A stretch of DNA of 64,000 nucleotides from Parcubacteria group bacterium 21-54-25 (GCA_002255585.1 NCBJ01000006.1:94-64093); one strand, 5' to 3'; shown: positions 8,616 through 59,659, counted from the stretch's first letter. Made by a program: numbers and translations. Notes: a model not told the origin generated them from the sequence alone.

Positions 8616-8655
8616 ACGATAACCTTTTTGCGTACCACTCTTGCAGACCTCGATG
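8616..8655. repeat. Direct repeat copy B
   Basis: See copy A. Minus-strand translation of both copies preserves the peptide GLQEWYAKR, and three substitutions are synonymous. Confidence 0.6.
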
Positions 8656-8758
8656 CGAAGGCAGAGCAAAAACCGATCGGCAAGAATCGCACCATGTGCG
8701 ACTCTCAAACAAACGCCCGACATGTCCGTCGGGCGGGCCTGAAACTCAGGCAGAAGAT

Positions 8759-9681: not shown

Positions 9682-9783
9682 CACAAAGGCGCGGCATGTG
9701 TCGCGTCTTTGTGCGGGAATAGCTCTCGCGGTTGCGAACTGGAGTTGAGGCCTCGCGGTCGGGAAACCACGTGCTGACTGCTG

Positions 9784-9854
9784 TGCGGGCAGGGAGAATC
9801 GAACTCCCGACTACTGCTTGGAAGGCAGTCGTTTTACCACTAAACCATGCCCGC
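9784..9854 (-). tRNA. tRNA-Gly (anticodon UCC), 71 nt, no encoded CCA
   Basis: Manual fold of GCGGGCA-TG-GTTT-AGTGGTA-AAAC-G-ACTGC-CTTCCAA-GCAGT-AGTC-GGGAG-TTCGATT-CTCCC-TGCCCGC-A. The anticodon loop is CTTCCAA. The GTTCGATTC T-arm is canonical. Confidence 0.8.
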
Positions 9855-21941: not shown

Positions 21942-23705
21942 GTGATGACCGATGCACAGCACAACGACGAGCCACGCACGGACGCTTCTTTGCCAAAGCG
22001 CGTTGTGCGCACGTATGCCAGTGATCTCGCTGCGCTACAGGGTAACAACGTACCAGTATCGGGTACTACCAAGCCGCCCGCTGCGACGCCACCCCCGCCC
22101 CGCGCGCCAATAGAACACGGAGAGGCGGGCCTCGCGACGTCACCACCAAAGACGCCGCCAAAGCCGGAGGTCGTTCAAACACCAATACCCCCGCCCCCAA
22201 CACACACACCGGAGGTTGTGGCACCGCCTGCCGCAACAAAGACGCGCCTCGCGCCACCCCCAAGGGCGTCGTCGCTTCCGGAAAAACAAAAAGAGCGTCC
22301 CGAAATTCCTGTTGATCTTGTGCTCATGAATCGCCGACCGCTGGCAGAGCAGGAATCGCACTGGTCAAAGCTCTGGTCATCTTTTGCATCAAAATCTTCT
22401 GACGTCGAAACGAACATAGCAGGGGCGCCAGTCATCCATGAGGACATCAAGGTTGCTGATAGCGAGCCGGCTCCCGCGCAACGAGAACAGGTTGCCGTGT
22501 CCCCTGTGATGACATCGCCGTCCATATCCTCACCCCAACAAAAGGCTCCTGCTAATACTAAACCGGCGGTACAATCGGCTCCGTACGTGCCGCCTCCGAC
22601 CACGGGATATTTCTCGCCACCTCAACCATTCCAGCAACCACAAGGCACTGAGAATGAGCCCCGCGAAGAAATACTTGCGCGTCTGCGCGCAAAAGTGGCT
22701 CGTGAGCGGCGCGCTAGTGATCAGCTTGTAGAAAAAAGTGTCTTGCCAGAGGAGAAAAGAGCCTCTGTGCTGGCCCCGGCGGCGTCGACACAAACACCAG
22801 TTTTTGCAACACAGCCTGATGAGCTCTCACCACTACACACGTACAAAACTGATTTCGTCGACCACTTACAGCAAACACAAGCATCTACTGTGTCCGTACT
22901 CGCCGCTGAGCACGATGCCGGACAAGCGCCTACCAAAGAAGCATATGCGACTTCTCGTTCGTACACGCTCCTGTGGGCAATTTCCGGCATACTCTTGCTT
23001 ATCATTGGTATCGGCGGCGTGTTCTACGCCTATTACTATCATGTTGGTCTCTCCGCGCCTGTCGCTACGGTACAAACAGCGCCGTCGCTCATTGCGACTG
23101 ACGGGTCGGTGCGGCTTTCTGGGACGGGTGGTGCGCTTATGAACGCACTTGCAAACGCTGCGAATACCGCATCACTTTCCGATGGCTCCGTGGAGCTTAC
23201 GTATATTACTATCGCAACCACTACTGCTACGGGTGCAACCACCACTATTTCTGTACCCGGAGGGTATCTCATTGCGGCGCTGAGGTTGCCCTTGCCAAAC
23301 ATTCTTGCAAACAACATTGCGGCTGATAGCACGGTAGGCATTGTGCGCGCAAGCGGCGAAACGAGACCCTTCTTCCTGCTGCACGTTGCGTCATACGATG
23401 CCGCCTTTGCTGGTATGTTGAGTTGGGAACGCACAATGGCAACGGATCTGGCCCCGCTCTATCCGCCGTATCCAACGGCGACAAGTACCGCCACAACGAC
23501 AGTTCGTATCTCAAGCGGTGCGGCGACGGCAAGCTCGTTTGTTGACGAGGTTGTTGCAAATCACGATACCCGCGTCCTCCGTGACGCCGCAGGCAGAAGT
23601 ATCATGCTCTATGGTTTCCGTGATAAAAACACGGTTATCATTGCGCGTAACGCGGCCGCATTTACCGCGATTCTCAACCGCCTCAACAATACAAGTGCGC
23701 AATAG
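21942..23705 (+). CDS. Hypothetical bitopic membrane protein with a Pro-rich cytoplasmic N-region and a large extracytoplasmic C-domain
   Basis: 587 aa. The first ~330 aa are Pro/Ala/Thr-rich. A single TM helix (LLWAISGILLLIIGIGGVFYAYYY) follows. No domain is recognised. Confidence 0.5.
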   Translation: MMTDAQHNDEPRTDASLPKRVVRTYASDLAALQGNNVPVSGTTKPPAATPPPPRAPIEHGEAGLATSPPKTPPKPEVVQTPIPPPPTHTPEVVAPPAATKTRLAPPPRASSLPEKQKERPEIPVDLVLMNRRPLAEQESHWSKLWSSFASKSSDVETNIAGAPVIHEDIKVADSEPAPAQREQVAVSPVMTSPSISSPQQKAPANTKPAVQSAPYVPPPTTGYFSPPQPFQQPQGTENEPREEILARLRAKVARERRASDQLVEKSVLPEEKRASVLAPAASTQTPVFATQPDELSPLHTYKTDFVDHLQQTQASTVSVLAAEHDAGQAPTKEAYATSRSYTLLWAISGILLLIIGIGGVFYAYYYHVGLSAPVATVQTAPSLIATDGSVRLSGTGGALMNALANAANTASLSDGSVELTYITIATTTATGATTTISVPGGYLIAALRLPLPNILANNIAADSTVGIVRASGETRPFFLLHVASYDAAFAGMLSWERTMATDLAPLYPPYPTATSTATTTVRISSGAATASSFVDEVVANHDTRVLRDAAGRSIMLYGFRDKNTVIIARNAAAFTAILNRLNNTSAQ

Positions 23706-26801: not shown

Positions 26802-27950
26802 CTATTGCATAAAACAACCTGTATCGACCTCCATAAGACGACAGGCGGCAAAAGGATTCTCTGCCCCACGCACTTCGAAGTGAAGGTGTGGGCCCGTTGC
26901 CTCTCCCGTCCTTCCCACATATCCTATAACTTGCTCTTGGCTCACCTGTTCACCAACGTGGGAAATGTCGCGACTCATGTGCGCGTAGAGTGTTTGTGTG
27001 CCATTCCCGTGGTCGATAACCACGTAGTTGCCGTAGCCGCCATTCCACCCGCCCACACGAGAGACGATTACCGTACCGGCGGCGGCGGCATGAATCGGCG
27101 TTCCGGTACGTGCGCCAATATCAAAAGCGTTCCATCCGTGAAGCCTTTGGGTAATGATGCCTCCGGGAAGCGGGTCGCTGAAAAAGCCGGGGAGCGCGGG
27201 ACCGCCGCCGCCGCGGTAGGGGTTTGGCGCAAGCGCAGAGGCGCGTGAACCGCGCGACACCGATGCGCGCGAACTTACTGACGATGCTGGCATCTCTCCA
27301 CCTGGAATAACAATAATCTCTCCTGTCGTAAGCGGTGTCTGTGCGTCAATGCCATTATAGAGCGCGATATCGTTCGTATTTGCATGATACTTCTTTGCGA
27401 TTGTCGCCAGTGTCTCTCCGTTGGTCACGGTGTGCTGAATACCAGAAACTGGCAAGATGAGGAGGGTGTCCCCGGGCTTTATGAGGCTTGCGTTCCTAAT
27501 GTTGTTCGCCCAGAGAATAGTATTAACCGACACACCGAACATCTGTGCAATTTCCGAGAGAGAATCCCCTGGTCGCACCACATACAGAGAAATCTGGCCA
27601 TTGGAGGTGGGAGAAGCATCGGTAGCGACACCGCCTGGACTGTCCGCGGCAATAAGCGCTGCGCCGCCGGTCATGGCAATAGTAACGCCATCTGTTGCTG
27701 TCGCGGTTGGGTCTGGTGTGGTGGGCGCGCGCAAAAGTGTTGTCGAGCCGCTATAGGCAAGCATCGCTCCCTGTGCGGCCGTGTTGGACGTGGTATTTGG
27801 AAATGGCCAGAATGCGCCAGCCGGTGCTGGAAAACCAGTGGTAAGCACGAGGAGCGCAAGCATCATTGCCGCCGCCGTGCCTCCTACCCAATATGCATTC
27901 CGACCCTGCCGCATCGTGCGAGCTTCGTCGGAAGGTTTCTTTTTAAGCAA
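26802..27950 (-). CDS. Peptidoglycan hydrolase: two LysM domains + M23 metallopeptidase
   Basis: The LysM repeats are YVVRPGDSLSEIAQMF and HTVTNGETLATIAKKY. The M23 motifs are HxxxD (IDHGNG...YAHM) and HLHFE. Confidence 0.8.
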   Translation of the reverse strand: MLKKKPSDEARTMRQGRNAYWVGGTAAAMMLALLVLTTGFPAPAGAFWPFPNTTSNTAAQGAMLAYSGSTTLLRAPTTPDPTATATDGVTIAMTGGAALIAADSPGGVATDASPTSNGQISLYVVRPGDSLSEIAQMFGVSVNTILWANNIRNASLIKPGDTLLILPVSGIQHTVTNGETLATIAKKYHANTNDIALYNGIDAQTPLTTGEIIVIPGGEMPASSVSSRASVSRGSRASALAPNPYRGGGGPALPGFFSDPLPGGIITQRLHGWNAFDIGARTGTPIHAAAAGTVIVSRVGGWNGGYGNYVVIDHGNGTQTLYAHMSRDISHVGEQVSQEQVIGYVGRTGEATGPHLHFEVRGAENPFAACRLMEVDTGCFMQ

Positions 27951-30933: not shown

Positions 30934-30998
30934 TACACAGACACGGGCACGTTACTTGCCCCGATAGAGACACAGACTGCTATACTATATGACGTACC

Positions 30999-32054
30999 GT
31001 GGCTTGGATGAAACGACAATGGGGCATTATTTCTGCAAGCATGCTTGCCGCACTGCTTATTGGCGGCGCATACCTGCTTGCCGCCGGTGCGTTTGCGCCA
31101 CGGCAGGCGGGTGCCACCGATACCACAGCGCTTTTGCAGGCGGTCGCCACGCGCGATAGCAATGGCGACGGGCTCCCAGATTGGGAGAAGGTGCTGTACG
31201 GCATCCCAATTAACGCCACCACCACCGACTATTTCCACCTCGGCATGACCGATGGCGAAGCGGTTGCGCGGGGACTCATTGTGCCAAAAGCCGTGGTCAA
31301 TATTCCTACGCCACCAGCAGCGACTTCTTCCGAAACACTCGCAGCCCTCGGACTACCATCCCCTTCACCGTCGGGAACGCTCACCAGCGCATTTGCAAAA
31401 AATTTCTTCCTGCTCTACCTAACCGCAAAACAAGCAAACGGCGGGGCGGCGCTTTCCCAAACCCAAGAAGAAGCCGTCGCGCAGCAGGCGCTCACACAGC
31501 TCTCTCAAGCAGTGTCTGCGGTGCCTAACTTTAAGTCAGCACAGGATCTCACCGTTTCCGGCTCTGGTCCTAGCGCGCTAAAAACGTTTGCAAACGCGGT
31601 GGGCACTATTTTCTTGAAGAATACCTCGACCGCGACAACGAGCGAATTGACATATCTTAAGGAAGCACTGAATAGCAGCGGTGATGATACATATGCGCTC
31701 ACACAAATCGCCTCTATTTCAAAAACATATCAAGACGTAGCGGCTGGTCTTGCGGCGCTCCCGGTGCCCCAAGAGCTTGCGAGCGCAGATCTCGCTTTGA
31801 TAAACGCGACCGAGCGCATTGGTGAAATTACGAGTGATTTCACCAACGTGGACACCGACCCGCTCACCACAATGATCGCCCTGCAACAGTACCCGCAAGC
31901 GGTGCTGGACTTTAGCCATGCACTGCTTAGTATCCATACCACCTATGTTGATGCGGGCATAACGTTCCCAGCGAACTCTCCTGCTGCTAGTTTTGTGAAC
32001 CTTGTGTCGAACGCCACCACCACACCCCAACAGACGCAGTCCACCACGCCATGA
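30999..32054 (+). CDS. Hypothetical membrane-anchored or secreted protein (first gene of the T4SS-like operon)
   Basis: 351 aa. There is an N-terminal hydrophobic helix and a DSNGDGLPDWEK Ca-binding-like motif. Its stop overlaps the next start (ATGA). Confidence 0.5.
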   Translation: MAWMKRQWGIISASMLAALLIGGAYLLAAGAFAPRQAGATDTTALLQAVATRDSNGDGLPDWEKVLYGIPINATTTDYFHLGMTDGEAVARGLIVPKAVVNIPTPPAATSSETLAALGLPSPSPSGTLTSAFAKNFFLLYLTAKQANGGAALSQTQEEAVAQQALTQLSQAVSAVPNFKSAQDLTVSGSGPSALKTFANAVGTIFLKNTSTATTSELTYLKEALNSSGDDTYALTQIASISKTYQDVAAGLAALPVPQELASADLALINATERIGEITSDFTNVDTDPLTTMIALQQYPQAVLDFSHALLSIHTTYVDAGITFPANSPAASFVNLVSNATTTPQQTQSTTP

Positions 32055-33709
32055 GAGCAGCGAGCTCTAAAAAAATACTTGCGCTACTTCTCATCGTGGC
32101 TTTTACCGCACCCGCGTCACTTCTTGTAGCCCCGCAACGGGCGCACGCATTCCTCGGATTTGGAGACACGATAGTTAAGATTGGCGATTACGCCAAAACG
32201 ACCTTTTTAAGTATCGCTAAAGAAACAATATCTGCTGTTGCAAACGTCTCCTCCTCAGCGGCAACGGTCGCGCTTGAAGTAGACAAGTACGTCCTTCAAC
32301 CGCTCGCTTTTGAGCTTTCGGGAAAAATACTGAAATCGATGACGTCGGACGTCATTGGTTTTATAAATGGAAAAACAAATGGCACCGGGCAACCGCAGTA
32401 TGTACAAAATCTGCGCGGATATGAGCAAACCGTTAATGATGGCCAGGTGCGTCCTTTTATCTCTGAGTTTCAGAGCTCCTCAAACTCCCAGTTTGCGCCG
32501 CAAATTGCGGCGTCGCTATACCAAGACTATACCCAAAACTCGAGTCTCGCCGGCTTTTTCGCACAAAACCAAGATACGCTTGGCAACGCATCTCCCAACC
32601 CACAGGCATTTGTTTCCGGCAGTTTCCGCGGCAACGGTGGGTGGAACGCATGGTTTTCGCTCACCACAGAGTGCCAGAACGATCCGTACTGCCTCCAGTA
32701 TCGCGCACAAAACGAGCTCGCAAGCCTTACTCAAAACGCTACGCAAGCCGGCCTTGCGGCACTCAACTGGGGAAATGGGTTCTTGTCGTGGTGTGGAGGA
32801 AGCGCTCCGTCGTCTTCGTCATCGAAAGGGGGCTCTGCGCCTACGGTCGGCACCGCGCCCGGAGACGCGTGCACAAAAGCAGACGGCTCGCCCGGAACTA
32901 TTTTGACTCCCGGTTCAGTTATTAAAGACCAGCTTCAGAACGTAGAAAACGCAAATATTATCAAAGTGACTCAGCTCGGTTCTCTTGGCGGAGAGGTGAC
33001 CCGTATACTTGGCAACATCGGAACCGTGATGCAAACGGTAAACCTGGCTTCGAATATTCTTGGTGGTAGCGGAAACTCGGGAGGATTTTCTGGCATTGGC
33101 CAGCCGTCCGGTAGCGGGGGTGGCTCAGCGCTTAGTCAATACGCAAACGCGCCGGGGTACCTGGGGGTAACCAGTGCGGGCGTCGCCCAGAGTGCGGGCG
33201 CCTCTTTCGCCGCTTCACTGCAACAGATAACCGCGAACGTAAACCAGTACGAGTCGGACTGGAATACGATAGCAAACTCGGCGACTTCGGCCTCGTCGGC
33301 GCTACACAAAATCATATCGTCATGCACCAGCACGAGCACACGGGACACGGCGAGTACCGCGCTCCAGGTCGAGGTAGCGCCCGTGCTTTCAAACGCGGCA
33401 ACAGCGTTCTCAGACATTTCTACAACACGCGTGCTCATCCAAAAAGTGCAGGCGGACGTAAATGGGACCGGAAATGGCGCAACATACCCAGAAGACCTTC
33501 AGGCGCTACAGACAGCGCCTCCAACCGCGCAAGACCTTGCGCAGGCGACACAAGATTCGATAGTACAAAACGCCGCAACGTCCTCACCGAGCAGTCCGTT
33601 GACCGTGTCTGGCGGATCTTTGGCAGACCAAATGAACCGTATTGCCCAAAACGCCAGCACTATACTTTCTTCCTGTGTGGTGGCCACCGCTACTACCACG
33701 AAACCCTAG
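32051..33709 (+). CDS. Hypothetical secreted protein, Ser/Gly/Ala/Thr-rich
   Basis: 552 aa. It has a signal peptide (LALLLIVAFTAPASLLVAPQRAHA) and a low-complexity C-terminal half. Confidence 0.5.
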   Translation: MRAASSKKILALLLIVAFTAPASLLVAPQRAHAFLGFGDTIVKIGDYAKTTFLSIAKETISAVANVSSSAATVALEVDKYVLQPLAFELSGKILKSMTSDVIGFINGKTNGTGQPQYVQNLRGYEQTVNDGQVRPFISEFQSSSNSQFAPQIAASLYQDYTQNSSLAGFFAQNQDTLGNASPNPQAFVSGSFRGNGGWNAWFSLTTECQNDPYCLQYRAQNELASLTQNATQAGLAALNWGNGFLSWCGGSAPSSSSSKGGSAPTVGTAPGDACTKADGSPGTILTPGSVIKDQLQNVENANIIKVTQLGSLGGEVTRILGNIGTVMQTVNLASNILGGSGNSGGFSGIGQPSGSGGGSALSQYANAPGYLGVTSAGVAQSAGASFAASLQQITANVNQYESDWNTIANSATSASSALHKIISSCTSTSTRDTASTALQVEVAPVLSNAATAFSDISTTRVLIQKVQADVNGTGNGATYPEDLQALQTAPPTAQDLAQATQDSIVQNAATSSPSSPLTVSGGSLADQMNRIAQNASTILSSCVVATATTTKP

Positions 33710-33715
33710 AAATAT

Positions 33716-36058
33716 ATGCGCCGCACCCTTACCATCGGATTTTTTTCACTCGCGCTTCTTGGGGTAGGCACCGGCATCGCTTTGGTTGCCGGGCCTGTGT
33801 CGAGTGTGCATGCGAAAATATTGAAGGGCGCAGGGAACAGCAGCACAGCAAGCTCTCTGTCGTCAGCAACAAACGTAAATCTCGGCACAGGAGCCGTCAA
33901 CACCCAGGGATTTAATGGAACCGGCCCAACTATTTCAAAAGGAAATGCCGCCACTTCGACCGGACAACCCGCGTCGCAACAAACACCCCCCGGTGCAAAT
34001 AATCCAACAACAAAAAGTACCGGCCCAGGAGACGTTCTTGGCCCGATACTTAATTACATTCTAGAAATGTTTGCTTGGTTTGTGGGCGCGACGGGCGTGC
34101 TTATGGGCGGGGCAATTTACTACACCGTCACCAATGCTGGTAACTCCATAAACTCGCTTGGTCCTATCCAGACTGCGTGGGAAGTCTTTCGCGATCTGGG
34201 CAACATCATTTTGGTATTCGGATTTATTGCTATCGGTATCGCAACCATTCTTGACAACGCCTCCTACGGCGCAAAAAAGGCGCTCCCGAAACTGCTTATT
34301 GTTGCGCTCATGCTGAACTTCTCTCTTTTTGCCGCGGAATTTATTGTGGATACCGGCAATATGTTTGCAACACAGTTTTACACCCAAATAAATGGAGGCC
34401 CGCTCCCTACGACAAACGCGAGTTTCCTGAGCCAGGTTAGCAACGAACCGATTTCAAACATACTCATGGATCGGCTGCAGCTCACTACAATCTATAATAT
34501 TAATAATCCGGGTAGCGGTGCGGCGTCTGCGGCAACCAAAAACCCACAGCAACACTGGTTTATCACCTTCATGCTCGGCATTGTGCTGTTTATTGTCACC
34601 GCGTTTGTGCTCGGCACTATCGCGCTCATGCTCATCACGCGTTTCGTCATACTCGTATTCCTTCTTATCGTGTCTCCATTCGGCTTCATTGGCCTGGCCG
34701 GCATTCCGCTCATCAGCACGTACAGCAAAAAGTGGTGGTCGGAACTCACAGACCAGGTGCTTCTTGCGCCCGTGCTCATGTTGCTGCTGTTGGTCGCGCT
34801 CAAACTCGTGCAGTCAGCCACCTTTCTTCAAGGCGCCTCGGCTACGTACGCGAGCGCAACAAGCGGTAACAATCTGCAAGCCATTACCACCCTCCTTGTT
34901 GGATTTACCATCATCATTGGTCTCATGATTGCCGCGCTTATCATTGCGAAGAGCCTCTCGGGGAAAGCCGCCGCGTTCGCCACAAAAACCCAGGGCCGAA
35001 TGATATTTGGCGGCCTCGGCATCGCGGGCCGAACCTCGCTTGGGCTGGGTTTCCACTACGCTTCGGAGAAATTCGGTGGCAGACTCGCGCGCGTTCCTGT
35101 GCTCGGACGCAGTATCGCATCGGGTCTTAAGCGCGGGGCCTCCGCCAGCTACGACGTGCGGGGTAGCAAATTCGTTGGTGCTGGGCTGAAAAATATTGGC
35201 ATTGATGCCGGCAGAGCCGGTGGCAAGGGCGGCTATAAAAAACATTTTGAAGACAGGGTAAAAGGTCGTGAGGAATACGCCGATAGTCTGAAGAAGCTTT
35301 CCTTAGAGGAGCGCCAGAAGCTCGCCGCGGCAAAAGGTGTCGCACAGGCAGCAGAAACAAAACTTAAAGACGTTAGGCCGACTCAGGCAGAAGACGAGGC
35401 GTTTATGCGAAACGAGCACACGAAAGCGCTTGAGGAACACGGTGTGCGCATTGATGCGGCGCGGACAAATGTTACCGGTATGAAAGCTGCGCATGCGAAA
35501 GCGCTTGAAGAGCACGATGCGCGTATTAGTGCAGCACGCACAATTACCGAAAACCTTCGAGCGGTGCGCTCTGATCCAACCCAAGCATTGGTCGGTGAGG
35601 CAGGGAGAATACAAGAGGAAAACGCCCAGAAAGCAGAAGAGGCGCTGGGGCGAGAAGAGGCTCTAAGGAACGAAAAAGAGCGGGTGCAAAAAGAAGATCT
35701 GCGTCAGGCAGAAGCGGGTCTGCAGCAAGAAGAGGACGCGCGACGTGAGAAAGAACGTGAACAGAAAAAAGAAATGGAGGAGCTCCGCAGCGCGCACGCT
35801 GCAGAACGTACGCTGCGGGAAAACGAACTGCAGACCGCAAAGGCGGCCTCAAGCACCATTACTGCCACCGCAAACGCACGCGCCACAAAATACGCAGAAA
35901 ACATCAATTGGGGGCCCGGGCGCTTATTCAAAGCAAATAGACTCGCTCGACAAAACATAGGCGATACTATCAACAAGTCGTCAACTCAGGCGCAGGTTGA
36001 CGCTCTTATGAAAACAATTAAAGATAACCAGAAGAAAGAAGACGCGGAGGAAGCCTAG
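33716..36058 (+). CDS. VirB6/TrbL-like polytopic membrane protein with a long C-terminal charged coiled-coil tail
   Basis: 780 aa. There is a signal or anchor helix followed by at least 6 TM helices in the 110-480 region. The ~250-aa C-terminus is E/K/R/A-rich with tandem repeats KALEEH(G/D)xRI(D/S)AART. Confidence 0.5.
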   Translation: MRRTLTIGFFSLALLGVGTGIALVAGPVSSVHAKILKGAGNSSTASSLSSATNVNLGTGAVNTQGFNGTGPTISKGNAATSTGQPASQQTPPGANNPTTKSTGPGDVLGPILNYILEMFAWFVGATGVLMGGAIYYTVTNAGNSINSLGPIQTAWEVFRDLGNIILVFGFIAIGIATILDNASYGAKKALPKLLIVALMLNFSLFAAEFIVDTGNMFATQFYTQINGGPLPTTNASFLSQVSNEPISNILMDRLQLTTIYNINNPGSGAASAATKNPQQHWFITFMLGIVLFIVTAFVLGTIALMLITRFVILVFLLIVSPFGFIGLAGIPLISTYSKKWWSELTDQVLLAPVLMLLLLVALKLVQSATFLQGASATYASATSGNNLQAITTLLVGFTIIIGLMIAALIIAKSLSGKAAAFATKTQGRMIFGGLGIAGRTSLGLGFHYASEKFGGRLARVPVLGRSIASGLKRGASASYDVRGSKFVGAGLKNIGIDAGRAGGKGGYKKHFEDRVKGREEYADSLKKLSLEERQKLAAAKGVAQAAETKLKDVRPTQAEDEAFMRNEHTKALEEHGVRIDAARTNVTGMKAAHAKALEEHDARISAARTITENLRAVRSDPTQALVGEAGRIQEENAQKAEEALGREEALRNEKERVQKEDLRQAEAGLQQEEDARREKEREQKKEMEELRSAHAAERTLRENELQTAKAASSTITATANARATKYAENINWGPGRLFKANRLARQNIGDTINKSSTQAQVDALMKTIKDNQKKEDAEEA

Positions 36059-36122
36059 TACGTACTACAATAATACAATTACCAAACGCAAACAGATTAC
36101 TCATATTTTTCATCCTTAATCT

Positions 36123-36686
36123 ATGGACACCCCCTCGCAAATACCGCTCGATGATAGTGTTCGCGCAGTAATGGGTGAGCTGCCACAGCCCCTGCAACAA
36201 TTCCTAGCGAGCGGAAAAGTAGAGGCAGTGACCAAGCTGCTGGTAGAAAAATATCGACTTCACCTCGACCAAGGAACCATGCTTGAGCGCGCGCTCATTC
36301 TCATGCTTCTTGGTGTGGAGAGCCCGGAAGAGTTTTCCACGGGTCTAGAAAAAGATCTGGGGCTTTCTGAAGGCACGGTCCGCGCACTTGTTGCTGATGT
36401 AAACGAACAGGTTTTTGTGCCAATTCGAAAACAACTGGAGAAAGAGGGCGCAGGCACACCAGACGCGCCGCAGCCAGGGACACTGCCAGGACAGGAGCAG
36501 AAAACCCCAATGGGAGTTGCTGAGGCGGCAATAATGGGCACCGCAAGCGCGGTAGCGGATCCACCTCCAACAGCGCACACGCCACCACGTGCAGAGCCGC
36601 CACCCCCCATTCCGCTCCGTCCAAAAAATGCGCCGCCCCTGGTCAAGGAGTACGCGGTCGACCCGTACCGAGAATCCGTTGAGTAG
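36123..36686 (+). CDS. Hypothetical protein with a Pro-rich C-terminus
   Basis: 187 aa. No TM helix and no recognisable domain. It is part of the operon. Confidence 0.45.
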   Translation: MDTPSQIPLDDSVRAVMGELPQPLQQFLASGKVEAVTKLLVEKYRLHLDQGTMLERALILMLLGVESPEEFSTGLEKDLGLSEGTVRALVADVNEQVFVPIRKQLEKEGAGTPDAPQPGTLPGQEQKTPMGVAEAAIMGTASAVADPPPTAHTPPRAEPPPPIPLRPKNAPPLVKEYAVDPYRESVE

Positions 36687-36758
36687 GACGTGGCGATGCG
36701 TTCGTAACGGTGGAGAACCTGCGTTTTTTATTCAGTATTCCGGTATACTATCTAGTAC

Positions 36759-37178
36759 ATGGAGTACCCGGTACCGCAGTTCATTGAGATAGAGAGCAAG
36801 ATCATAGGGCCGCTCACGCTCAAGCAGTTCATTTATATTGCTGGTGGTGGTGGGCTTTGTATTATTCTTTTTCATTTCTTGCCTTTTTTTCTTGCGGTCT
36901 TGGCGTGTCTTCCGGTCGCGGGCTTTGCGGGCGCGTTGGCGTTTTATAAAATAAATAACAAGCCGTTCATTGCTACTGTGGAGGCCGCGTTTAGGTTCTA
37001 CACTTCTTCACGCTTGTTCTTGTGGCATAAAGAGCACACGAAGGAAAGTGCAGTGCAAGCCGCGCCCGCGGCGGCGCCGGCGGCGCACGCAGCCAGCCGC
37101 CTTACGCGCGGCAAGCTGCATGAACTTGCGTGGTCGCTTGATATACAGAATCACCCCCGAGAGCGCTCCTCCTTATAG
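36759..37178 (+). CDS. PrgI-family (VirB3-like) small membrane protein
   Basis: The N-terminus (MEYPVPQFIEIESKIIGPLTLKQFIYIAGGGGLCIIL, then a second helix) matches the PrgI-family pattern. It lies immediately upstream of the VirB4 ATPase, as in Gram-positive T4SS. Confidence 0.55.
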   Translation: MEYPVPQFIEIESKIIGPLTLKQFIYIAGGGGLCIILFHFLPFFLAVLACLPVAGFAGALAFYKINNKPFIATVEAAFRFYTSSRLFLWHKEHTKESAVQAAPAAAPAAHAASRLTRGKLHELAWSLDIQNHPRERSSL

Positions 37179-37181
37179 AGT

Positions 37182-37829
37182 ATGACTAAACCACGCGCTA
37201 CCGCGGCACAAACATTCGTTCCAGTGAAAGAAATACGTAACGGTGTCATCATACTCAAAGACGGCGGGTATCGCGGCGTACTTATTTGTTCTTCGGTAAA
37301 CTTTGGTTTGAAGTCCGCGGGCGAACAGGCGGCTATCATAAGCGGCTTCCAAACTTTTTTAAACACGCTTGATTTTCCAGTGGAGATTGTTGTGCAGTCG
37401 CGTAAAATGGATATCCGTCCGTATCTCAGTCTTCTCGCGGAAAAAGAAAAGGACCAGCAGACGGAGCTGTTGCGTATTCAATTGCGCGAATACATGGCGT
37501 TTGTTCGTTCGTTTACGGAAAATTCAAATATCATGACTAAATCGTTTTATGTTTTGGTACCCTACGCTCCGGAGGGTGCTGCGGCTGCAAAAAAAGCTCT
37601 GGGTGGACTTATCCACATGGGCGGGAGCACCGCTGGAAACGCCCGCGCGCAGACAAAATCATTTGAGGAGTCCCATGCGCAACTCGAGCAGCGTATGGCG
37701 CTCGTTGCTTCCAGCCTTTCAGCCACCGGCGTGCGCGCCGTACCGCTTGGCACAGAAGAAATCATCGAGCTGCTCTACCGATCGTTTAATCCTGGTGAAC
37801 TTGAAAACCCTATTCGCCTTGAGCAATAA
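37182..37829 (+). CDS. VirB4/PrgJ-family ATPase, N-terminal domain fragment (ends at an in-frame TAA)
   Basis: 215 aa. The VirB4 N-domain pattern is present (VPVKEIRNGVIILKDGGYRGVLICSSVNFGLKSAGEQAAIISGFQTFLN). It is in the same reading frame as the next ORF. Only one TAA (37827-37829) plus two codons separate them. Confidence 0.6.
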   Translation: MTKPRATAAQTFVPVKEIRNGVIILKDGGYRGVLICSSVNFGLKSAGEQAAIISGFQTFLNTLDFPVEIVVQSRKMDIRPYLSLLAEKEKDQQTELLRIQLREYMAFVRSFTENSNIMTKSFYVLVPYAPEGAAAAKKALGGLIHMGGSTAGNARAQTKSFEESHAQLEQRMALVASSLSATGVRAVPLGTEEIIELLYRSFNPGELENPIRLEQ

Positions 37830-37835
37830 ATCATT

Positions 37836-39662
37836 ATGTCACTTATTGATTTTCTCAACAAAAAACATCAACAGGAGTCTGCCGTCACCTCGGTGCTTCC
37901 GAAAGATATCTATGCCGAGGGGAAACTTGATCTGGTCGACACTATTGCGCCCGCGGCGCTTAAGGTTAGCGCGCGCGAAATTGAACTGGGTGAGAAGTTT
38001 GCGCGCACCTTTTATACCATCTCGTACCCCGCCTTTCTTTCTGACGGCTGGTTTGCACCGATTGTAAATCTCGATAAGGTGCTCGATGCATCAATATTCA
38101 TACACCCCCTTGAAACCGAGGAGGCGCTCCGTAACTTCCAAAAGAAGGTGGCTGATGTGCAAAGCCAGATAAACGAACGCGAACACAAGGGCTTGGTACG
38201 CGACCCGAAGCTTGACACCGCCTACCAAAACCTTGAGGCGCTGCGCGACCGGCTTCAGCAGGCGCGCGAGAAACTGTTTGATGTTGGGCTCTACCTCACG
38301 CTCTACGGCGATTCGAAAGAGGAAATTGACAAAACCGAGGGGGATATTCGCGGCATCCTCGACGCGCAGCTCGTCTACACAAAGCCTGCGCTTTTTCAAC
38401 AAGAACAGGGGTTCCGCACAACGCTCCCGCTTGGCAACGACGAGCTCATGGTCGAGTCGAAAATGAACTCTGAACCGCTCTCGTCCATCTTCCCGTTTGT
38501 TTCGTTTGATCTCACGAGTGATCGCGGCATTCTCTATGGTATTAATCGGCACAACGCTTCCTTAATTCTCTTCGATCGCTTCTCTCTTGAAAACTATAAC
38601 TCGGTCGTATTTGCGAAATCCGGTTCGGGTAAGTCATACGCGCTGAAGCTCGAGATCCTTCGCTCGCTCATGTTTGGCACTGACGTAATCGTCATTGACC
38701 CTGAGCGCGAGTACGAGCAGCTTGCCGAGGCCACTGACGGGCGCTCTTTTAACATCTCTCTATCCTCTGAACATCATATAAATCCCTTCGACCTGCCGGT
38801 CATCCAGGAGGGAGAAGATCCGAAGGACCTGCTGCGCAACAACATTATTACGCTCGTGGGACTGTTTCGCATCATGCTGGGCGGTCTTACGCCTGGAGAG
38901 GACGCGCTTATCGATCGCGCAATTACGGAAACCTACGCCCTCAAAGACATTACTGGCGATACTGATTTCACCAATATTGAGCCACCACTGTTGGCGGACT
39001 TCGAAACGGTACTCGTGGGTATGGAGGGGACTGATTCGCTCGTGGAGCGGCTCACCAAGTACACCACTGGTTCGTGGAGTGGTTTCATCAATCAACCAAC
39101 CAATATCGATATCAATCGCCAATTTATTGTGTTTTCGGTGCGTGATATGGAGGACGAGCTGAAGCCGGTCGCCATGTATATCGTTTCGCACTACATTTGG
39201 AACGCAATTCGTCGCAACCTTAAAAAACGCCTTTTAGTTATCGATGAGGCGTGGTGGATGATGAAAGCAGAGGACACCGCCTCTTTCCTCTACTCGCTTG
39301 CCAAACGTGGGCGCAAATATTACCTCGGTGTTGCGACGATTACCCAGGACGTTGAGGACTTCTTGCGCTCGCCCTATGGGCGGCCAATTCTGACAAACTC
39401 ATCCATTCAGCTTCTTTTGAAACAATCGCCGACAACCGTCGATGTGCTCCAAAAAACCTTTAATCTTACCGATGAGGAAAAATACCTGCTGCTTGAGTCC
39501 GGGGTGGGTGAGGGGCTCTTCTTCGCCGGATTGAAACACGTGGCTATTAAAATTGTTGCTTCGTACACCGAAGATCAGATCATCACATCGGATCCGTCAC
39601 AACTTCTTGCAATCAAGCGCGAAAAAGAACGACTTGAAGAAACTGATGCTGGCGGCACGTAG
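37836..39662 (+). CDS. VirB4/TraC/PrgJ-family conjugation-type ATPase (C-terminal ATPase portion)
   Basis: 608 aa. Walker A is VVFAKSGSGKSYAL and Walker B is VIVIDPEREY. The C-terminal TraC/VirB4 motifs are VATITQDVEDF. Confidence 0.8.
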   Translation: MSLIDFLNKKHQQESAVTSVLPKDIYAEGKLDLVDTIAPAALKVSAREIELGEKFARTFYTISYPAFLSDGWFAPIVNLDKVLDASIFIHPLETEEALRNFQKKVADVQSQINEREHKGLVRDPKLDTAYQNLEALRDRLQQAREKLFDVGLYLTLYGDSKEEIDKTEGDIRGILDAQLVYTKPALFQQEQGFRTTLPLGNDELMVESKMNSEPLSSIFPFVSFDLTSDRGILYGINRHNASLILFDRFSLENYNSVVFAKSGSGKSYALKLEILRSLMFGTDVIVIDPEREYEQLAEATDGRSFNISLSSEHHINPFDLPVIQEGEDPKDLLRNNIITLVGLFRIMLGGLTPGEDALIDRAITETYALKDITGDTDFTNIEPPLLADFETVLVGMEGTDSLVERLTKYTTGSWSGFINQPTNIDINRQFIVFSVRDMEDELKPVAMYIVSHYIWNAIRRNLKKRLLVIDEAWWMMKAEDTASFLYSLAKRGRKYYLGVATITQDVEDFLRSPYGRPILTNSSIQLLLKQSPTTVDVLQKTFNLTDEEKYLLLESGVGEGLFFAGLKHVAIKIVASYTEDQIITSDPSQLLAIKREKERLEETDAGGT

Positions 39663-39665
39663 GGT

Positions 39666-40292
39666 ATGGAGCAGCCGCCAAAACAGAAAATGCCCATGTG
39701 GCGCGCCGTCGTCATTGTAGCGCTTGCTTTTTTTGTAGACCTATTGAAATTCTTTTTCTCAATACTTGCCGTCACCGGCCCCCTGCTTGTGGGCGCAGCG
39801 GCGGGCGCAGCTGTGGGTAGTCACCTTGGTTCTACGGCGGGCCACGTTACCGGGCTGGCCGTTATGGGGTCGTCGTACCTATTTGAGTTTGCGAGTGGCG
39901 GCATTGGCGCAGCAGGCATTACGTTCATCGGCGAAATGTTTGCTTTGGCTATTGCTTTTTTTGGAGAGGTGCTCATCACAATGATGCTTGCGCTCTCTGG
40001 AGTACAGATTTTCAGCAAGAAAGCTCCCTCAAAAAGACTTGCTACTGTTTTTGTAACGGCGCTGCTTAATTTTGTACCATTTATTAACAGTGGTCCGTGG
40101 CTTACTGCCGGAACCTGGTTGATTGTGCGCGGTGTTAGAAAAGAAGATCGCGACGCACAGCGTGAATATGAAGATAAGACGAACCAGGAACGCACACGGG
40201 TGCAGTCAAGGCGTGAAGCGGCATCTGCGTTCTTTGCGAATCGACAGGCTGCAAATGAGGAAATCCCCGAATCACCACCACTGGCCGCCTAG
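39666..40292 (+). CDS. Hypothetical polytopic membrane protein
   Basis: 208 aa. It has 4-5 hydrophobic helices rich in Gly/Ala and a charged C-tail. Confidence 0.45.
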   Translation: MEQPPKQKMPMWRAVVIVALAFFVDLLKFFFSILAVTGPLLVGAAAGAAVGSHLGSTAGHVTGLAVMGSSYLFEFASGGIGAAGITFIGEMFALAIAFFGEVLITMMLALSGVQIFSKKAPSKRLATVFVTALLNFVPFINSGPWLTAGTWLIVRGVRKEDRDAQREYEDKTNQERTRVQSRREAASAFFANRQAANEEIPESPPLAA

Positions 40293-40322
40293 CTCGACTC
40301 GTAACGCGGTATACTATTTTAT

Positions 40323-41324
40323 ATGCGGACATTGATTGCGGCTAGTGCGAGCATGAGCATGATTATGTTAGTGCTGCCACTTGCGGTACGCGCGCAAACC
40401 ATCTCCACCGACCCGTTCTCAATCAACATCACACCCGCGTACCCAAGCCCGTATGAGCCACTGACACTGTCTGTTGGAAGCGGCTCTGTTGATATGTCAA
40501 ACAGCACTTTTAAGGTGTTTGTAAACGGGGCACTGGCGACAGTTGGGACGGGCGCGTCTTCTGTTTCTCTCACTGCGAGCGGCCCAGGCACAACAATGAA
40601 TATTCGGGTTGTCGTGTCGTCAGGCGGCCAGCAGTATCAAAAAACACTTGCGGTGCGTCCGCTTGCGGTGGCGCTTTCAGTAGAGCCCCTTGCGACCCTC
40701 CCTCCGCTTTATCCCGGCGGCGCTACCATTCCCCCAAACGGGAGCGTCCGCATGGTCGCCGTTCCTACTTTTTATTCGAATAGTGGTGTCTACATTGACC
40801 CCGCGACTCTTTCGTATACCTGGAGCGTGGGCGGGCAAACGCTTATAGCAAGCTCCGGCATTGGCCAATCCTCGGTGGTTGTTTCGGCACCGCTTCCGTA
40901 CCGTCAAGAAGACGTTTCGGTGCTTGTACAAAACCAAGACGGCTCGCTGGTTGCCTCCCAGAGCGTCGCGCTCACCCCACAGAACCCGCTCGTGCAGTTG
41001 TACCAAAAAGATCCGCTTATGGGGATTGAATATGGGCACGCGCTATCCGGGCAACAAACCCTTTCGGGAGTACAAACTTCATTTGTGGCGGTGCCGTACG
41101 GTTTTTCGACCGATAGTGGCGGGCCGAGCATTGTGTGGTCGCTAAACGGCGCGACGGCGCAGACTGGAGACACTATCACGCTTCAGCCGCAGGGCGCCGG
41201 GCAGGGAAGTGCGGCTCTGTCGGCTGCGGTGAGTGATCCGGCGTCGTACGAGAGCGCGACGGCGGGATTCACTGCGGTATTTGGATCTGCTCAGACCGGC
41301 GGTTTTGGGCTATTCGGTTTGTAG
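40323..41324 (+). CDS. Hypothetical secreted protein
   Basis: 333 aa. It has a signal peptide (MLVLPLAVRAQT). The composition is Ser/Thr/Val-rich and looks beta-rich. Confidence 0.45.
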   Translation: MRTLIAASASMSMIMLVLPLAVRAQTISTDPFSINITPAYPSPYEPLTLSVGSGSVDMSNSTFKVFVNGALATVGTGASSVSLTASGPGTTMNIRVVVSSGGQQYQKTLAVRPLAVALSVEPLATLPPLYPGGATIPPNGSVRMVAVPTFYSNSGVYIDPATLSYTWSVGGQTLIASSGIGQSSVVVSAPLPYRQEDVSVLVQNQDGSLVASQSVALTPQNPLVQLYQKDPLMGIEYGHALSGQQTLSGVQTSFVAVPYGFSTDSGGPSIVWSLNGATAQTGDTITLQPQGAGQGSAALSAAVSDPASYESATAGFTAVFGSAQTGGFGLFGL

Positions 41325-41334
41325 TATTGCTTAT

Positions 41335-42387
41335 ATGTATACCCTACTGTCTTATCGTCAGAAATTATTGCGAATTTTGGCACTCACGGGCTTTGTTGGG
41401 ATGTTATTCCTTTTTCTCCCGCCCATTGCTGCGGCTGCGGGCACTACCGCGGTAACGCCGGCCGTTGCGTCGACTGGTTCTGCTGGTTTTGTTTCTTTGA
41501 CCGGCCTTCCTCTCTTTTCACAAGGAGCGGCTGCGGGCGGCATGAGTACTTTTTTGAATTTACTCTATCAGTACTTAATTGGTATTGCGGTTATCCTCGC
41601 GGTGCTTGAAATTATGTGGGGTGGATTTCTCATCATGGGAAGTGGTGCGAGTGTTTCGAGTAAGGAGGCGGGGAAAAATAAGGTTGGCATGGCGCTCGGC
41701 GGCCTCCTTCTTGTTCTTTCTCCGTATATTGTCTTCAGCCTCATAAACCCCGGCGCGCTTTCGCTCCAAATCGGCGCTGGAAACCTGCAGCTGAGTCCGA
41801 CACCACCACCCAAACAATCTTCGTCCGGACCGCAACAACAAGTCAGTTTAGGTACTGGATGCTCTATTGTTGGCGCAAGTGATGTTTTGCAGACTGCAAA
41901 CTGTCCTTCTTCTAAAAGTACGCAGCAATTCCAAAACTTGTGTGGCAGCGAGGGGGGTCAATATTCGAACATCTCTTTAAACAAGTATGCTGACGGAACA
42001 GCGGCTTATGGTGTCTGGATGTGCTCGTGGCCACATAAATATGTATTTATAGACACAAGCCCGAACTCCCTTTTGTCTCTTCAGAACTACACCTCGGCAT
42101 TTAATACCATTAACTGGATGCAGCCACTGGCGGTCACGTCAAAAGACTCAAACAATGCTAGTTCCGCGATACAATTTGCACACATCTGCTCAAGTGCTGG
42201 CTTCTCGACCTGTATAAGCCAACAGTTTCTCTCTGTTCCTTGTGCACCTATACCGAAAACATCGCTGCCTGCGGGCAGAAGTATGAAATGTTATTCAGAA
42301 TCTTTAACATGTAGGGACTATGGCTATGCACACTCTATTGTCGCGAGCTTGTGCTCAAAGGACCCAAGCTGGGCACCGTTTCAGTAG
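41335..42387 (+). CDS. VirB2/TrbC-like pilin-type protein with a Cys-rich C-terminal extension
   Basis: A signal-like helix is followed by two hydrophobic segments separated by a short charged loop (LIGIAVILAVLEIMWGGFLIMGSG...KNKVGMALGGLLLVLSPYIVFSLI), as in T4SS pilins. A ~200-aa domain with 12 Cys follows. The start is at ATG 41335; the ORF track's 41233 overlaps the previous gene. Confidence 0.45.
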   Translation: MYTLLSYRQKLLRILALTGFVGMLFLFLPPIAAAAGTTAVTPAVASTGSAGFVSLTGLPLFSQGAAAGGMSTFLNLLYQYLIGIAVILAVLEIMWGGFLIMGSGASVSSKEAGKNKVGMALGGLLLVLSPYIVFSLINPGALSLQIGAGNLQLSPTPPPKQSSSGPQQQVSLGTGCSIVGASDVLQTANCPSSKSTQQFQNLCGSEGGQYSNISLNKYADGTAAYGVWMCSWPHKYVFIDTSPNSLLSLQNYTSAFNTINWMQPLAVTSKDSNNASSAIQFAHICSSAGFSTCISQQFLSVPCAPIPKTSLPAGRSMKCYSESLTCRDYGYAHSIVASLCSKDPSWAPFQ

Positions 42388-42392
42388 ATGAT

Positions 42393-43613
42393 ATGAGAAG
42401 AATCTTTATTGTTGCTGGTAGCATCCTCGCTCTCGTAATTGTGGGCGTTGGCGGGTATATTTTATTTTTTGCGCATCGGGCTAGTGTGGCGGTAGCTCCG
42501 CCCGAGCAGGTGGCCTTCCCAACAGGAACCAGCACGGGCCCCGTAGGGGCTGTTGTGGGCACAAGCACCGCTCCTGTGGTCGTCCAGCCGGCTTCCACCG
42601 CTTCGAGCACGCAGCCGCATTTGGTGCAAATTGCGGCAGGCCCTGTGGTGCCGGGGGTGGTCGTGTTTGACGCCACCACAACCTCAACAAGTACGGTTTC
42701 TGCTGTGGTTCGATATATCGATCGACAGAGTGGTAACGTGTACAGCTACGCTGTTGCAAACGGGGAGTTGTCGCGCCTCTCGAACAAAACGATCCCTGGT
42801 ATCGAGCGCGCGACGTGGCTTGCCGATGGCTCGCTTGCGTACGTGCAATATTTGTCCGCCATCAGCGGCACCACAAACACCCAGACCTACGCGCTTCCCG
42901 CAAACGGTATTGGTGGTTTCTTTCTTGCACAAGACCTCTCTGGAATAGCGGTGCAGGGCTCAAAATCCATCCTCACGCTTGCTTCCGGCGCAAATGGATC
43001 GGCAGCTACGTATGCGAAATCGGATGACAGCAGCCCCTATACTGCCTTCCAAACACCGCTCTCTTCTGTTGTCGCCTCGTTTGCTGGGCCGTCCCACTAT
43101 TTGATATACACCAAACCATCCGTGGCGCTTGGTGGCTACGCATTTCTCGTCAACAAAAAAACTGGCGCGTTTTCCCAAATAGCTGGCCCTCTCGACGGAC
43201 TTGTGGCGCGCGCAAGCCCGGACGGCACACAAATTCTCGTGAGTTATGTTGATGCACAGGGAGCGATGCGTTTGGAGTTGGTTGCTGTGGCAACCCACAC
43301 AGCGACAGAGCTGCCGCTGGCAACAATTGCGAGCAAGTGTGTGTGGGCCAGCGACAGCGCGTCTATTTATTGCGGTATCCCCACTAACCCCCCAGCCGCT
43401 TCCTATCCGGATGATTGGTACCAGGGCGCAGTGGCTTTTGATGATCAGATATGGAAAATTGATGTGGCCGGCCGTTATGCGCAATTGGTGCTTGATTTTT
43501 CGAAAGAGACGGGCGGGCAGCTTGACGCAACCGCACTGTCGGTTGATCCCAAAAACACTGTTTTGTCGTTTGTAAATAAAAATGATGGGTCGTTGTGGGA
43601 GTACAGATTTTAG
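42393..43613 (+). CDS. Hypothetical membrane-anchored extracytoplasmic protein (last gene of the operon)
   Basis: ~407 aa from MRRIFIVAGSILALVIVGVGGYILFF. The composition looks beta-rich, possibly a propeller-like fold. Confidence 0.45.
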   Translation: MRRIFIVAGSILALVIVGVGGYILFFAHRASVAVAPPEQVAFPTGTSTGPVGAVVGTSTAPVVVQPASTASSTQPHLVQIAAGPVVPGVVVFDATTTSTSTVSAVVRYIDRQSGNVYSYAVANGELSRLSNKTIPGIERATWLADGSLAYVQYLSAISGTTNTQTYALPANGIGGFFLAQDLSGIAVQGSKSILTLASGANGSAATYAKSDDSSPYTAFQTPLSSVVASFAGPSHYLIYTKPSVALGGYAFLVNKKTGAFSQIAGPLDGLVARASPDGTQILVSYVDAQGAMRLELVAVATHTATELPLATIASKCVWASDSASIYCGIPTNPPAASYPDDWYQGAVAFDDQIWKIDVAGRYAQLVLDFSKETGGQLDATALSVDPKNTVLSFVNKNDGSLWEYRF

Positions 43614-44745: not shown

Positions 44746-44883
44746 TTATACCGCAAGTTGTTTGCGGCCTTTTTGTGCTCGGCGACGCAGTATTTTCCGG
44801 CCGCCGGGTGTTTTTGATCGCGAGAGGAAGCCGTGTGTTTTTGCGCGCTTGCGTTTTTTTGGTTGATAGGTGCGTTTTGGCAT
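44746..44883 (-). CDS. rpmH: 50S ribosomal protein L34
   Basis: Manual minus-strand translation gives [45 protein letters not shown], the canonical L34. It is too short for the ORF track. Confidence 0.85.
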
Positions 44884-54333: not shown

Positions 54334-54398
54334 ATGGTTATGATAGCGCGGCACGACCGCTTGTGCCACTGAGGCTCTCCACTTGGTACAATGGCTGT

Positions 54399-54845
54399 AT
54401 GGAAAAAGAATGCCGCACGCTCGAGGACCTATATCAAGAAGCCGCTCGATTTGTGAGCACCTTGATACCGCACGAAAATGCTGCAACGCTCATTACGCTC
54501 TCGGGCGCACTTGGAGCGGGGAAGACCGCTTTTACAAAAGCGGTTGCCCGCTCGCTCGGTGTTGAAGAGCGTGTCACAAGCCCGACGTTTGTTCTAGAAA
54601 AGATATATGACTTGCCTGCCCCACGAAACGGCACGGGCTTTGCGCGGCTCGTACATATTGACGCGTATCGGCTTGAAGGAGCCACGGCACTTTCGCCACT
54701 CGGTTTTGATGCGCTCATGCGCGACCCGCAGAATCTCATACTTATTGAGTGGCCAGAACAGGTTGTGGGGGGACTACCTGAACCCGCCACGCGTATTTCA
54801 TTTGTTGCGCGCAATGACGAAAGTCGCACCGTTACGTATGCCTAA
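54399..54845 (+). CDS. tsaE: tRNA t6A37 threonylcarbamoyladenosine biosynthesis protein TsaE
   Basis: The P-loop is LSGALGAGKTAFTKAV. Motifs SPTFVL and HIDAYRL are present. A TGGTACAAT extended -10 lies upstream. Confidence 0.8.
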   Translation: MEKECRTLEDLYQEAARFVSTLIPHENAATLITLSGALGAGKTAFTKAVARSLGVEERVTSPTFVLEKIYDLPAPRNGTGFARLVHIDAYRLEGATALSPLGFDALMRDPQNLILIEWPEQVVGGLPEPATRISFVARNDESRTVTYA

Positions 54846-59585: not shown

Positions 59586-59658
59586 CCGCCTGTAGCTCAA
59601 TTGGCAGAGCAGCTCCCTTTTAAGGAGAAGGTTGGGGGATCGTGGCCCTCCAGGCGGA
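59586..59658 (+). tRNA. tRNA-Lys (anticodon UUU), 73 nt, no encoded CCA
   Basis: CCGCCTG-TA-GCTC-AATTGGCA-GAGC-A-GCTCC-CTTTTAA-GGAGA-AGGTT-GGGGG-ATCGTGG-CCCTC-CAGGCGG-A. The D-arm is canonical. The T-loop is atypical (ATCG). Confidence 0.75.
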
Positions 59659-59659
59659 C

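Follow-up and report, generated by a model that had tools for sequence, protein, structure and literature searches.

Positions 30999-43613 of a 64,000-nucleotide stretch (NCBJ01000006.1:94-64093; hereafter the window) of Parcubacteria group bacterium 21-54-25, a Parcubacteria/Paceibacteria metagenome-assembled genome (MAG), carry a co-directional plus-strand cluster of 11 open reading frames (ORFs), numbered here g1 to g11. From its gene content we identify the cluster, with high confidence, as the Paceibacteria version of the chromosomal type IV secretion system (T4SS) of the Patescibacteria clade. The apparatus appears to derive from monoderm conjugation machinery of the MPF_FATA class, with the DNA-processing parts lost. 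Taking identity and proposed mechanism together, we put the probability that this is the best explanation of the whole at roughly 0.8. The kind of system is not new, having already been published (PMC10633639; PMC12102498), and the locus fits the published description feature by feature.

A survey of 3,035 Patescibacteria genomes found their VirB4 proteins to form a monophyletic clade nested in MPF_FATA (Quinonero-Coronel et al. 2025, Microb Genom, PMC12102498). In that survey TrsD, PrgI/VirB3, VirB6 and VirB2-like pilins are encoded near virB4, and DnaA, DnaN, RnpA, KsgA and RpmH are frequent neighbours, notably in Paceibacteria, while relaxases are nearly absent and type IV coupling proteins (T4CPs) seldom adjacent. 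Transposon sequencing (Tn-seq) of Southlakia epibionticum showed a T4SS cluster, including its pilins, to be essential for epibiotic growth, and coupling and relaxase proteins were noted as missing there (Wang et al. 2023, Cell, PMC10633639). A conduit hypothesis for the Patescibacteria T4SS has also been put forward (PMC12857230).

The VirB4-family ATPase claimed by an earlier note on this DNA is g7 (37836-39662, 608 amino acids (aa)). It matched the NCBIfam model conju_CD1110 at 9.4e-114 (381 bits against a cutoff of 325), aligning to profile positions 182-733 of 752, which cover the middle and C-terminal domains. Pfam P-loop_TraG was matched at 5e-25, and the PDB entry 4AG5, the Thermoanaerobacter VirB4 ATPase domain, at 5.4e-43, with TrwK reaching just 3e-5; the Walker A (KSGSGKS) and Walker B (LLVIDEAW) motifs are intact. 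The claim of a PrgI-like protein was equally sound: g5 (36759-37178, 139 aa) is a PrgI/VirB3-like protein with two transmembrane (TM) segments, scoring 2.5e-10 against Pfam PrgI (41.2 bits, cutoff 27 bits), and lies near virB4 unfused to it. The two had been described as direct neighbours. In fact a conserved 215-aa protein, g6 (37182-37829), intervenes, although it is itself a VirB4 N-domain homologue, VirB4 being divided over two ORFs. In NCBIfam searches g6 aligned with two VirB4 models, CD1110 (positions 2-133) and Mbov_0397 (positions 104-233), and among its orthologues 26 of 26 matched VirB4 N-terminal models and 23 of 26 matched TrsD. Because a PDB profile search with the g6 orthologues gave no match, the VirB4-N/TrsD identity is drawn from NCBIfam alone. 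By these profiles g6 is a TrsD-like equivalent of a detached VirB4 N-terminal domain, predicted to supply the part that g7 lacks. The split is conserved, with g6 a separate ORF in 77 related loci.

A TM scan of g3 (33716-36058, 780 aa) gave a signal peptide, about six TM segments and a charged cytoplasmic coiled-coil tail of ~260 aa, which is similar to coiled-coil proteins only. The VirB6/TrbL likeness described earlier could not be recovered from the window protein, which matched no Pfam or NCBIfam family, but of the relatives sampled 7 of 31 (6 of 30 species-genome orthologues) matched Pfam TrbL with a best value of 2e-7 and one matched TrbL_4. Topology and position also fit VirB6/TrbL, and g3 is assigned through its orthologues as a putative extended VirB6/TrbL-like polytopic membrane protein.

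The pilin candidate g10 (41335-42387, 350 aa) consists of a signal peptide, a hydrophobic hairpin of two helices (residues ~60-150) and, after a Pro/Ser linker, a hypervariable C-terminal domain with 10 Cys in about 180-200 aa, the last being the Cys-rich extension that had been pointed out before. As a VirB2-like pilin the window protein stayed below threshold (T4SS_pilin at E 5e-4, under the gathering score; TrbC/VirB2 also short of its cutoff), but the family assignment stands in its relatives: T4SS_pilin was matched by 27 of 31 sampled (26 of 30 orthologues; best 3e-11) and TrbC by 14 of 31. An alignment of g10 orthologues showed a conserved signal peptide, an FVPLxxIPGL motif and the hairpin, followed by 75-289 aa that could not be aligned; mean pairwise identity was 44% in the core and 15% in the extension.

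An exhaustive phmmer search returned 5,702 g10-related representatives of 50%-identity clusters, and extension statistics were taken from the best 150 of these. In 147 of the 150 the extension measured at least 60 aa (60-320 aa, median 181 aa), and 146 of these 147 extended relatives had an even number of Cys, with a mode of 10. The Cys content was 5.8% in the extension, against 0.7% in the N-terminal part. An even count would be expected if the cysteines paired in extracellular disulfides, and it points to a host-recognition domain that is displayed and disulfide-bonded. When the C-terminal domain was queried by itself, a word-indexed homologue search gave no match; the idea that the domain is unique was dropped, since phmmer found 35 full-length relatives at E≤1e-30, and it is better described as divergent. 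The full text of PMC12102498 does not contain the word 'extension', and its lone mention of 'cysteine' concerns CHAP domains, not pilins. The hypervariable Cys-rich pilin extension is the only feature of the cluster for which we found no description in the Patescibacteria T4SS literature examined.

Conservation was assessed in a scan of one genome per species, which returned 551 VirB4 relatives. Locus counts cover the best 80, all Paceibacteria/Kaiserbacteria-type MAGs with a VirB4 71-86% identical to g7. The order pcrA-ksgA-g1...g11-yidC(-)-rnpA(-) recurs across these best-matching species-representative genomes, and such recurrence in 80 genomes places the arrangement far beyond chance. By tblastn, g9 was found in 79 of the 80 loci, making it the most conserved accessory gene, followed by g6 (78), g5 (75), g11 (67), g3 (50), g10 (47), g4 (41), g1 (29, at the same position) and g2 (26); the counts are on the low side because contig ends truncate many of the loci. 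For g8 (39666-40292, 208 aa), jackhmmer recovered 49 homologous ORFs in related loci, placed, as g8 is, between virB4 and g9.

The cluster is embedded in housekeeping genes. Upstream lie an M23/LysM peptidase gene (26802-27950, minus strand, 3 kb off), PcrA/UvrD and KsgA; downstream are YidC, RnpA and RpmH, all on the minus strand, and then DnaA and DnaN. A scan of all ORFs of 74 aa or more in the window detected no relaxase, VirD4/TcpA coupling protein or VirB11, as the earlier note had stated. Within g1-g11, VirB8-like (PrgL/TraM) and VirB1-like (PrgK/TraG) proteins gave no match either. The sole T2SSE-family ATPase of the window (52660-54486, minus strand, 608 aa) is PilB-like, carries an MshEN domain and sits between ruvB and polA without further pilus genes beside it. 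It was rejected as a VirB11 substitute on account of its size (VirB11 has ~330-350 aa), its MshEN domain and its location 9 kb away. An integrated mobile element was likewise rejected: the borders lack an integrase or repeats, the same flanks recur across species and GC content shows no break at the upstream border. GC content falls downstream, at ~44-48 kb over rnpA-rpmH-dnaA-dnaN, outside the cluster; the values there, 0.38-0.43, fit an oriC region. In an Rfam scan of the window tRNAs were the only matches, all of them outside the cluster, and the cluster contains no structured RNA. With housekeeping flanks, a window free of mobilisation genes and a published system of the same make, the earlier proposal of a chromosomally fixed, non-conjugative, T4SS-derived surface apparatus, unannotated accessory subunits included, is well founded. 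The kinship it drew with a system proposed in ultra-small episymbiotic bacteria also stands, the source being a Parcubacteria MAG and the literature giving the same parts list and neighbours.

Some details of the layout needed revision. Twelve genes had been counted; the ORF listing gave 11, and the NCBI locus tags agree, running in increments of 5 from B7X04_02655 (g2) to B7X04_02700 (g11). Both g2 and g11 show 100% identity to hypothetical proteins recorded for Parcubacteria group bacterium 21-54-25. For g10 and g11 the start was taken as the first ATG past the upstream gene, their longest ORFs opening at 41233 and 42351, within the preceding genes. The junctions that had been quoted are all correct (32051/32054, a 4-nt overlap, 33709/33716, 37178/37182, 39662/39666 and 42387/42393), and the 0-30-bp spacing described holds for them, but not for g3/g4 (64 bp) and g4/g5 (72 bp).

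The cluster had also been taken for one tightly coupled operon. TATACT boxes precede g1 (a -10-like box at 30981-30986, 12 nt before the start codon), g5 (a -10 box at 36744-36749, 9 nt before the ATG) and g9 (a -10 box at 40310-40315, 7 nt before the ATG), all on the plus strand and each a putative promoter; no other conserved TATACT boxes occur in the cluster. Across related loci, a TATACT-type box lay within 30 nt upstream of g5 in 57 of 74 and of g9 in 42 of 76, compared with 0-8 for genes inside a unit, and the region upstream of g1 had TACTAT/TATACT-like boxes in 12 of 29; in relatives the box frequently reads TGnTATACT. The promoter assignment follows from these conserved boxes and not from a sigma-70 consensus scan, which showed no enrichment (8 found, 10 expected). 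The positions of the boxes therefore make three units, g1-g4, g5-g8 and g9-g11, a better description of the cluster than a single operon; these are probably leaderless or short-leader transcription units, next to oriC, with starts predicted at about 30993, 36756 and 40322. Genes at TATACT boxes have no Shine-Dalgarno-like sequences, and this, with a box-to-start distance of 7-12 nt, suggests leaderless or very short-leader mRNAs in the lineage. Similar boxes precede other genes of the window, such as those near 19759 and 20770 (minus strand).

Six genes, g1, g2, g4, g8, g9 and g11, appear to be lineage-specific, with evidence of a fold for g11 and, weakly, for g9 only. Direct Pfam and NCBIfam scans of these six and of g3 gave no significant match. 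The product of g1 (30999-32054, 351 aa) is a signal-anchored extracytoplasmic protein with a DxDxDG Ca-binding-like motif (DSNGDGLPDWEK), mainly helical thereafter and of no known family. The g2 protein (32051-33709, 552 aa) is secreted and mostly helical, with several invariant Gly/Pro/Cys positions. Its 98 homologues include none with a functional name and nearly none with a Pfam domain, making it an orphan family confined to Paceibacteria-type genomes. A structural model of g2 (predicted local distance difference test (pLDDT) 70) was mostly helical, with a C-terminal bundle at high confidence. The PDB profile search with g2 orthologues gave no match, and a role as VirB5/TraC analogue was dropped, Foldseek against PDB returning nothing at E<0.7 and no sequence match being found; no assignment of g2 is warranted.

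The g4 product (36123-36686, 187 aa) is soluble and comprises a conserved helical N-domain of ~110 aa, a Pro-rich linker whose length varies widely and a C-terminal DPYRE motif that is invariant in 26 of 26 orthologues; the orthologue set matched nothing in PDB or Pfam and belongs to no known family. The DPYRE end resembles a tethered docking peptide. The g8 protein is Gly-rich, polytopic and fast-evolving, has a charged tail and falls in no known family. The secreted, beta-rich g9 (40323-41324, 333 aa) gave weak profile matches to Hoc immunoglobulin (Ig)-like (1.2e-3) and PKD domains and a weak Cadherin-like one, and probably consists of tandem Ig-like domains. For g11 (42393-43613, 406 aa) the model (pLDDT 85, predicted template modelling score 0.78) showed a TM helix at the N-terminus, connected by ~45 disordered residues to a seven-bladed beta-propeller, and the sequence profile gave weak TolB (2e-4) and TolB/PD40-like matches; g11 is thus confidently modelled as a membrane-anchored extracytoplasmic seven-bladed beta-propeller.

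We compared the cluster with four groups of known systems. With the Patescibacteria-clade T4SS (Southlakia SEML1_0005-0019) it shares the core and the core's gene order, with a putative VirB6-like protein, PrgI, a TrsD-like protein and VirB4 followed by exported Ig-like protein(s), and also VirB2-like pilin(s), as well as a chromosomal site beside ksgA/rnpA/dnaA, the lack of a relaxase and T4CP nearby and a monoderm host. In contrast to Southlakia, which has six short arrayed pilins (103-185 aa) and two VirB6-like genes, it has one pilin of 350 aa, which bears the hypervariable Cys-rich domain at its C-terminus, and a single VirB6-like gene; it carries no lysozyme or peptidase gene downstream of virB4, the only candidate nearby being the M23/LysM gene upstream on the other strand; and g1, g2, g4, g8 and the beta-propeller g11 occur in Paceibacteria-type genomes only. 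The conjugative MPF_FATA systems (CTn2 CD1110, pCF10 Prg/Pcf, pGO1 Trs and pIP501 Tra) have in common with it a CD1110-type VirB4, PrgI/VirB3, a TrsD-like protein (as in pGO1), a VirB6-like polytopic protein and the absence of outer-membrane core proteins. Unlike them, the cluster has no T4CP, relaxase or oriT, and no VirB8-like or VirB1-like gene could be detected in it. It occupies a fixed chromosomal site instead of residing on a plasmid or integrative and conjugative element, and it includes a VirB2-like pilin, which Gram-positive systems lack. Bordetella Ptl, Helicobacter ComB and archaeal Ced resemble it in being VirB4-powered, repurposed from conjugation and devoid of a relaxase, Ptl and ComB also of VirD4. 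However, Ptl and ComB are of the diderm MPF_T type with VirB7, VirB9 and VirB10, Ced works with CedA/CedA1/CedA2 and type IV pili, and no specific component of any of the three is present here beyond the shared ATPase fold. Finally, extended VirB6 proteins (the Rickettsiales VirB6 paralogues and F-type TraG) have, according to a review, at least five hydrophobic helices and a large hydrophilic C-proximal domain, as g3 does, but the coiled-coil cytoplasmic tail of g3 has no similarity to those extensions.

These parts can be arranged into a working mechanism. By homology, the VirB3-like PrgI g5 anchors a VirB4 motor made of g6 (N-domain) and g7 (ATPase), which sits by the putative extended VirB6-like channel or platform protein g3. 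The motor may pull the pilin g10 from the membrane and polymerise it into a filament or short conduit, with the disulfide-bonded hypervariable domain on the outside serving as a host-recognition or adhesion surface. g11, g9, g2, g1 and g8 would be lineage-specific envelope accessories that may replace the missing VirB8/VirB1-type parts, and g4 could be a cytoplasmic adaptor docking by its invariant C-terminal DPYRE peptide. By analogy with Saccharibacteria, we infer that the function is that of a host-contact conduit or pilus, through which the bacterium, on contact, would exchange material with its host (exporting effectors or taking up host molecules) and would not conjugate. A more speculative extension of this scheme, which we hold to be somewhat doubtful, is that the Paceibacteria T4SS pilin is a modular adhesin. 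Polymerisation or anchoring would fall to its conserved VirB2 hairpin, and every subunit would present a fast-diversifying, disulfide-stabilised host-specificity domain, as a single-gene counterpart of the Saccharibacteria pilin arrays, assisted by an envelope scaffold (g11, g9, g2 and g4) that is unknown in other T4SSs.

Several observations weigh against the reading as a host-contact T4SS. The assignments of g3 and g10, which lie under the family thresholds in the window, rest on their orthologues, and machine membership of g1, g2, g4, g8, g9 and g11 rests on conserved adjacency only. A globular domain of ~20 kDa per subunit may fit poorly into a VirB2-type filament, and a minor pilin or an adhesin anchored in the membrane is an alternative role for g10. 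Both the essentiality and the conduit idea come from another class, Saccharimonadia. A coupling protein could lie elsewhere in the genome, VirD4 homologues being common in Patescibacteria far from virB4 (PMC12102498). Lastly, in the subgroup with the closest VirB4 (typified by the locus L004) the g1-g4 module, which includes VirB6, is not adjacent to prgI, and the modules are therefore separable. In these loci pgk, recJ, an RNase H-like gene, comEC and an M50-peptidase ORF precede prgI; the comEC of L004 (DUF4131 and Competence domains) occupies 5292-6814, upstream of prgI, and the arrangement is similar in loci such as L003, L007, L011, L014 and L018; VirB4 in these genomes is ~81-84% identical.

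The L004-type genomes and the three separate promoter-like boxes also speak for a narrower interpretation, in which only the g5-g8 core with g3 and g10 is a T4SS-derived machine and g1, g2, g4, g9 and g11, none of which matches a known T4SS family, are unrelated envelope proteins sharing an origin-proximal neighbourhood. We consider this unlikely. Against it, g9 adjoins virB4 in 79 of 80 genomes and g11 follows the pilin in 67 of 80, and translational coupling is tight, with the g1/g2 overlap and gaps of 3-10 nt in g9-g10-g11. In Southlakia, moreover, an exported Ig-like (PEGA) protein is encoded three genes past virB4 and was classed by Tn-seq as GD at the first time point and as ES (essential) at the two that followed, as were its neighbours.

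It is less probable still that the cluster encodes a competence-type T4SS like ComB or Ced, importing host DNA or nucleotides for a cell unable to make nucleotides. To our knowledge, ComB and Ced likewise work without a relaxase and T4CP, which counts in favour of such a role. Other pointers to DNA uptake are weak NCBIfam matches of g7 to CedB (5e-9) and CedD (3e-3), comEC directly upstream of prgI in the genomes with the closest VirB4, such as L004, and comF, recG and radA beside the T4SS in class ABY1 (PMC12102498). However, the CedB match spans just ~70 residues, which belong to the shared ATPase fold, the cluster has no component specific to ComB or to Ced, and comEC is not adjacent in the window. 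In Southlakia, deletion of comEC abolishes competence and not viability, whereas the T4SS is essential, and competence there needs type IV pili. A functional conjugation or mobilisation apparatus with coupling protein, relaxase and oriT elsewhere in the genome, for which one could cite the 64 kb of genome covered by our evidence and the VirD4-like T4CPs of most Patescibacteria genomes (5,713 homologues in 2,918 genomes, mostly far from virB4), is very improbable, given that relaxases occur in just 103 Patescibacteria genomes (109 homologues) and rarely near virB4, that the distant Southlakia t4cp is non-essential while the T4SS genes are essential, that VirB4 seldom crosses Patescibacteria classes (for 99.3% the closest homologue belongs to their own class, by patristic distances; all PMC12102498), and that dozens of species have the cluster at one fixed site, between ksgA and yidC/rnpA/dnaA, its borders free of integrase, repeats and compositional break.

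Some features elsewhere in the window deserve mention. An unlisted rpmH (L34) lies at ~44746-44883 on the minus strand, between rnpA and dnaA, and the true dnaA start must therefore be downstream of the GTG at 44775 that opens the longest ORF. The 3' end of a tRNA-Lys gene (59586-59659, plus strand) is overlapped by an ORF with a LAGLIDADG homing-endonuclease domain (59642-60487). At 9118-9854 a serine recombinase fragment, consisting of the zinc-ribbon recombinase domain only, stands beside tRNA-Gly (9783-9854, minus strand); with the degenerate-looking ORFs next to it (7792-8953), it is possibly the remnant of an integrated element. A 587-aa protein encoded at 21942-23705 (plus strand) is Pro-rich in its N-terminal half, crosses the membrane once, has its C-terminal domain outside the cytoplasm and matches no Pfam family. 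Two minus-strand genes encode secreted or anchored proteins, one with a dockerin type I domain (2248-3330) and one with a weak lamin-tail domain match (60484-61473); surface proteins of such kind are essential in Saccharibacteria, an example being the dockerin-domain protein SEML1_0315 (Wang et al. 2023, PMC10633639).

The Patescibacteria T4SS is seen as among the most interesting newcomers to the T4SS superfamily, being essential for an epibiotic lifestyle and equipped with pilins in a monoderm. The locus described here leaves the published picture unchanged and provides a clean, fully syntenic Paceibacteria example. The leads worth pursuing are the pilin extension, the DPYRE adaptor g4 and the beta-propeller g11. 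Conserved accessories such as the modelled propeller g11 and the probable Ig-like g9 could guide structural work on how a T4SS spans the envelope of candidate phyla radiation bacteria, and the exposed, hypervariable disulfide domain predicted on the pilin is a candidate determinant of host range and may serve as a marker in metagenomic studies of host specificity.

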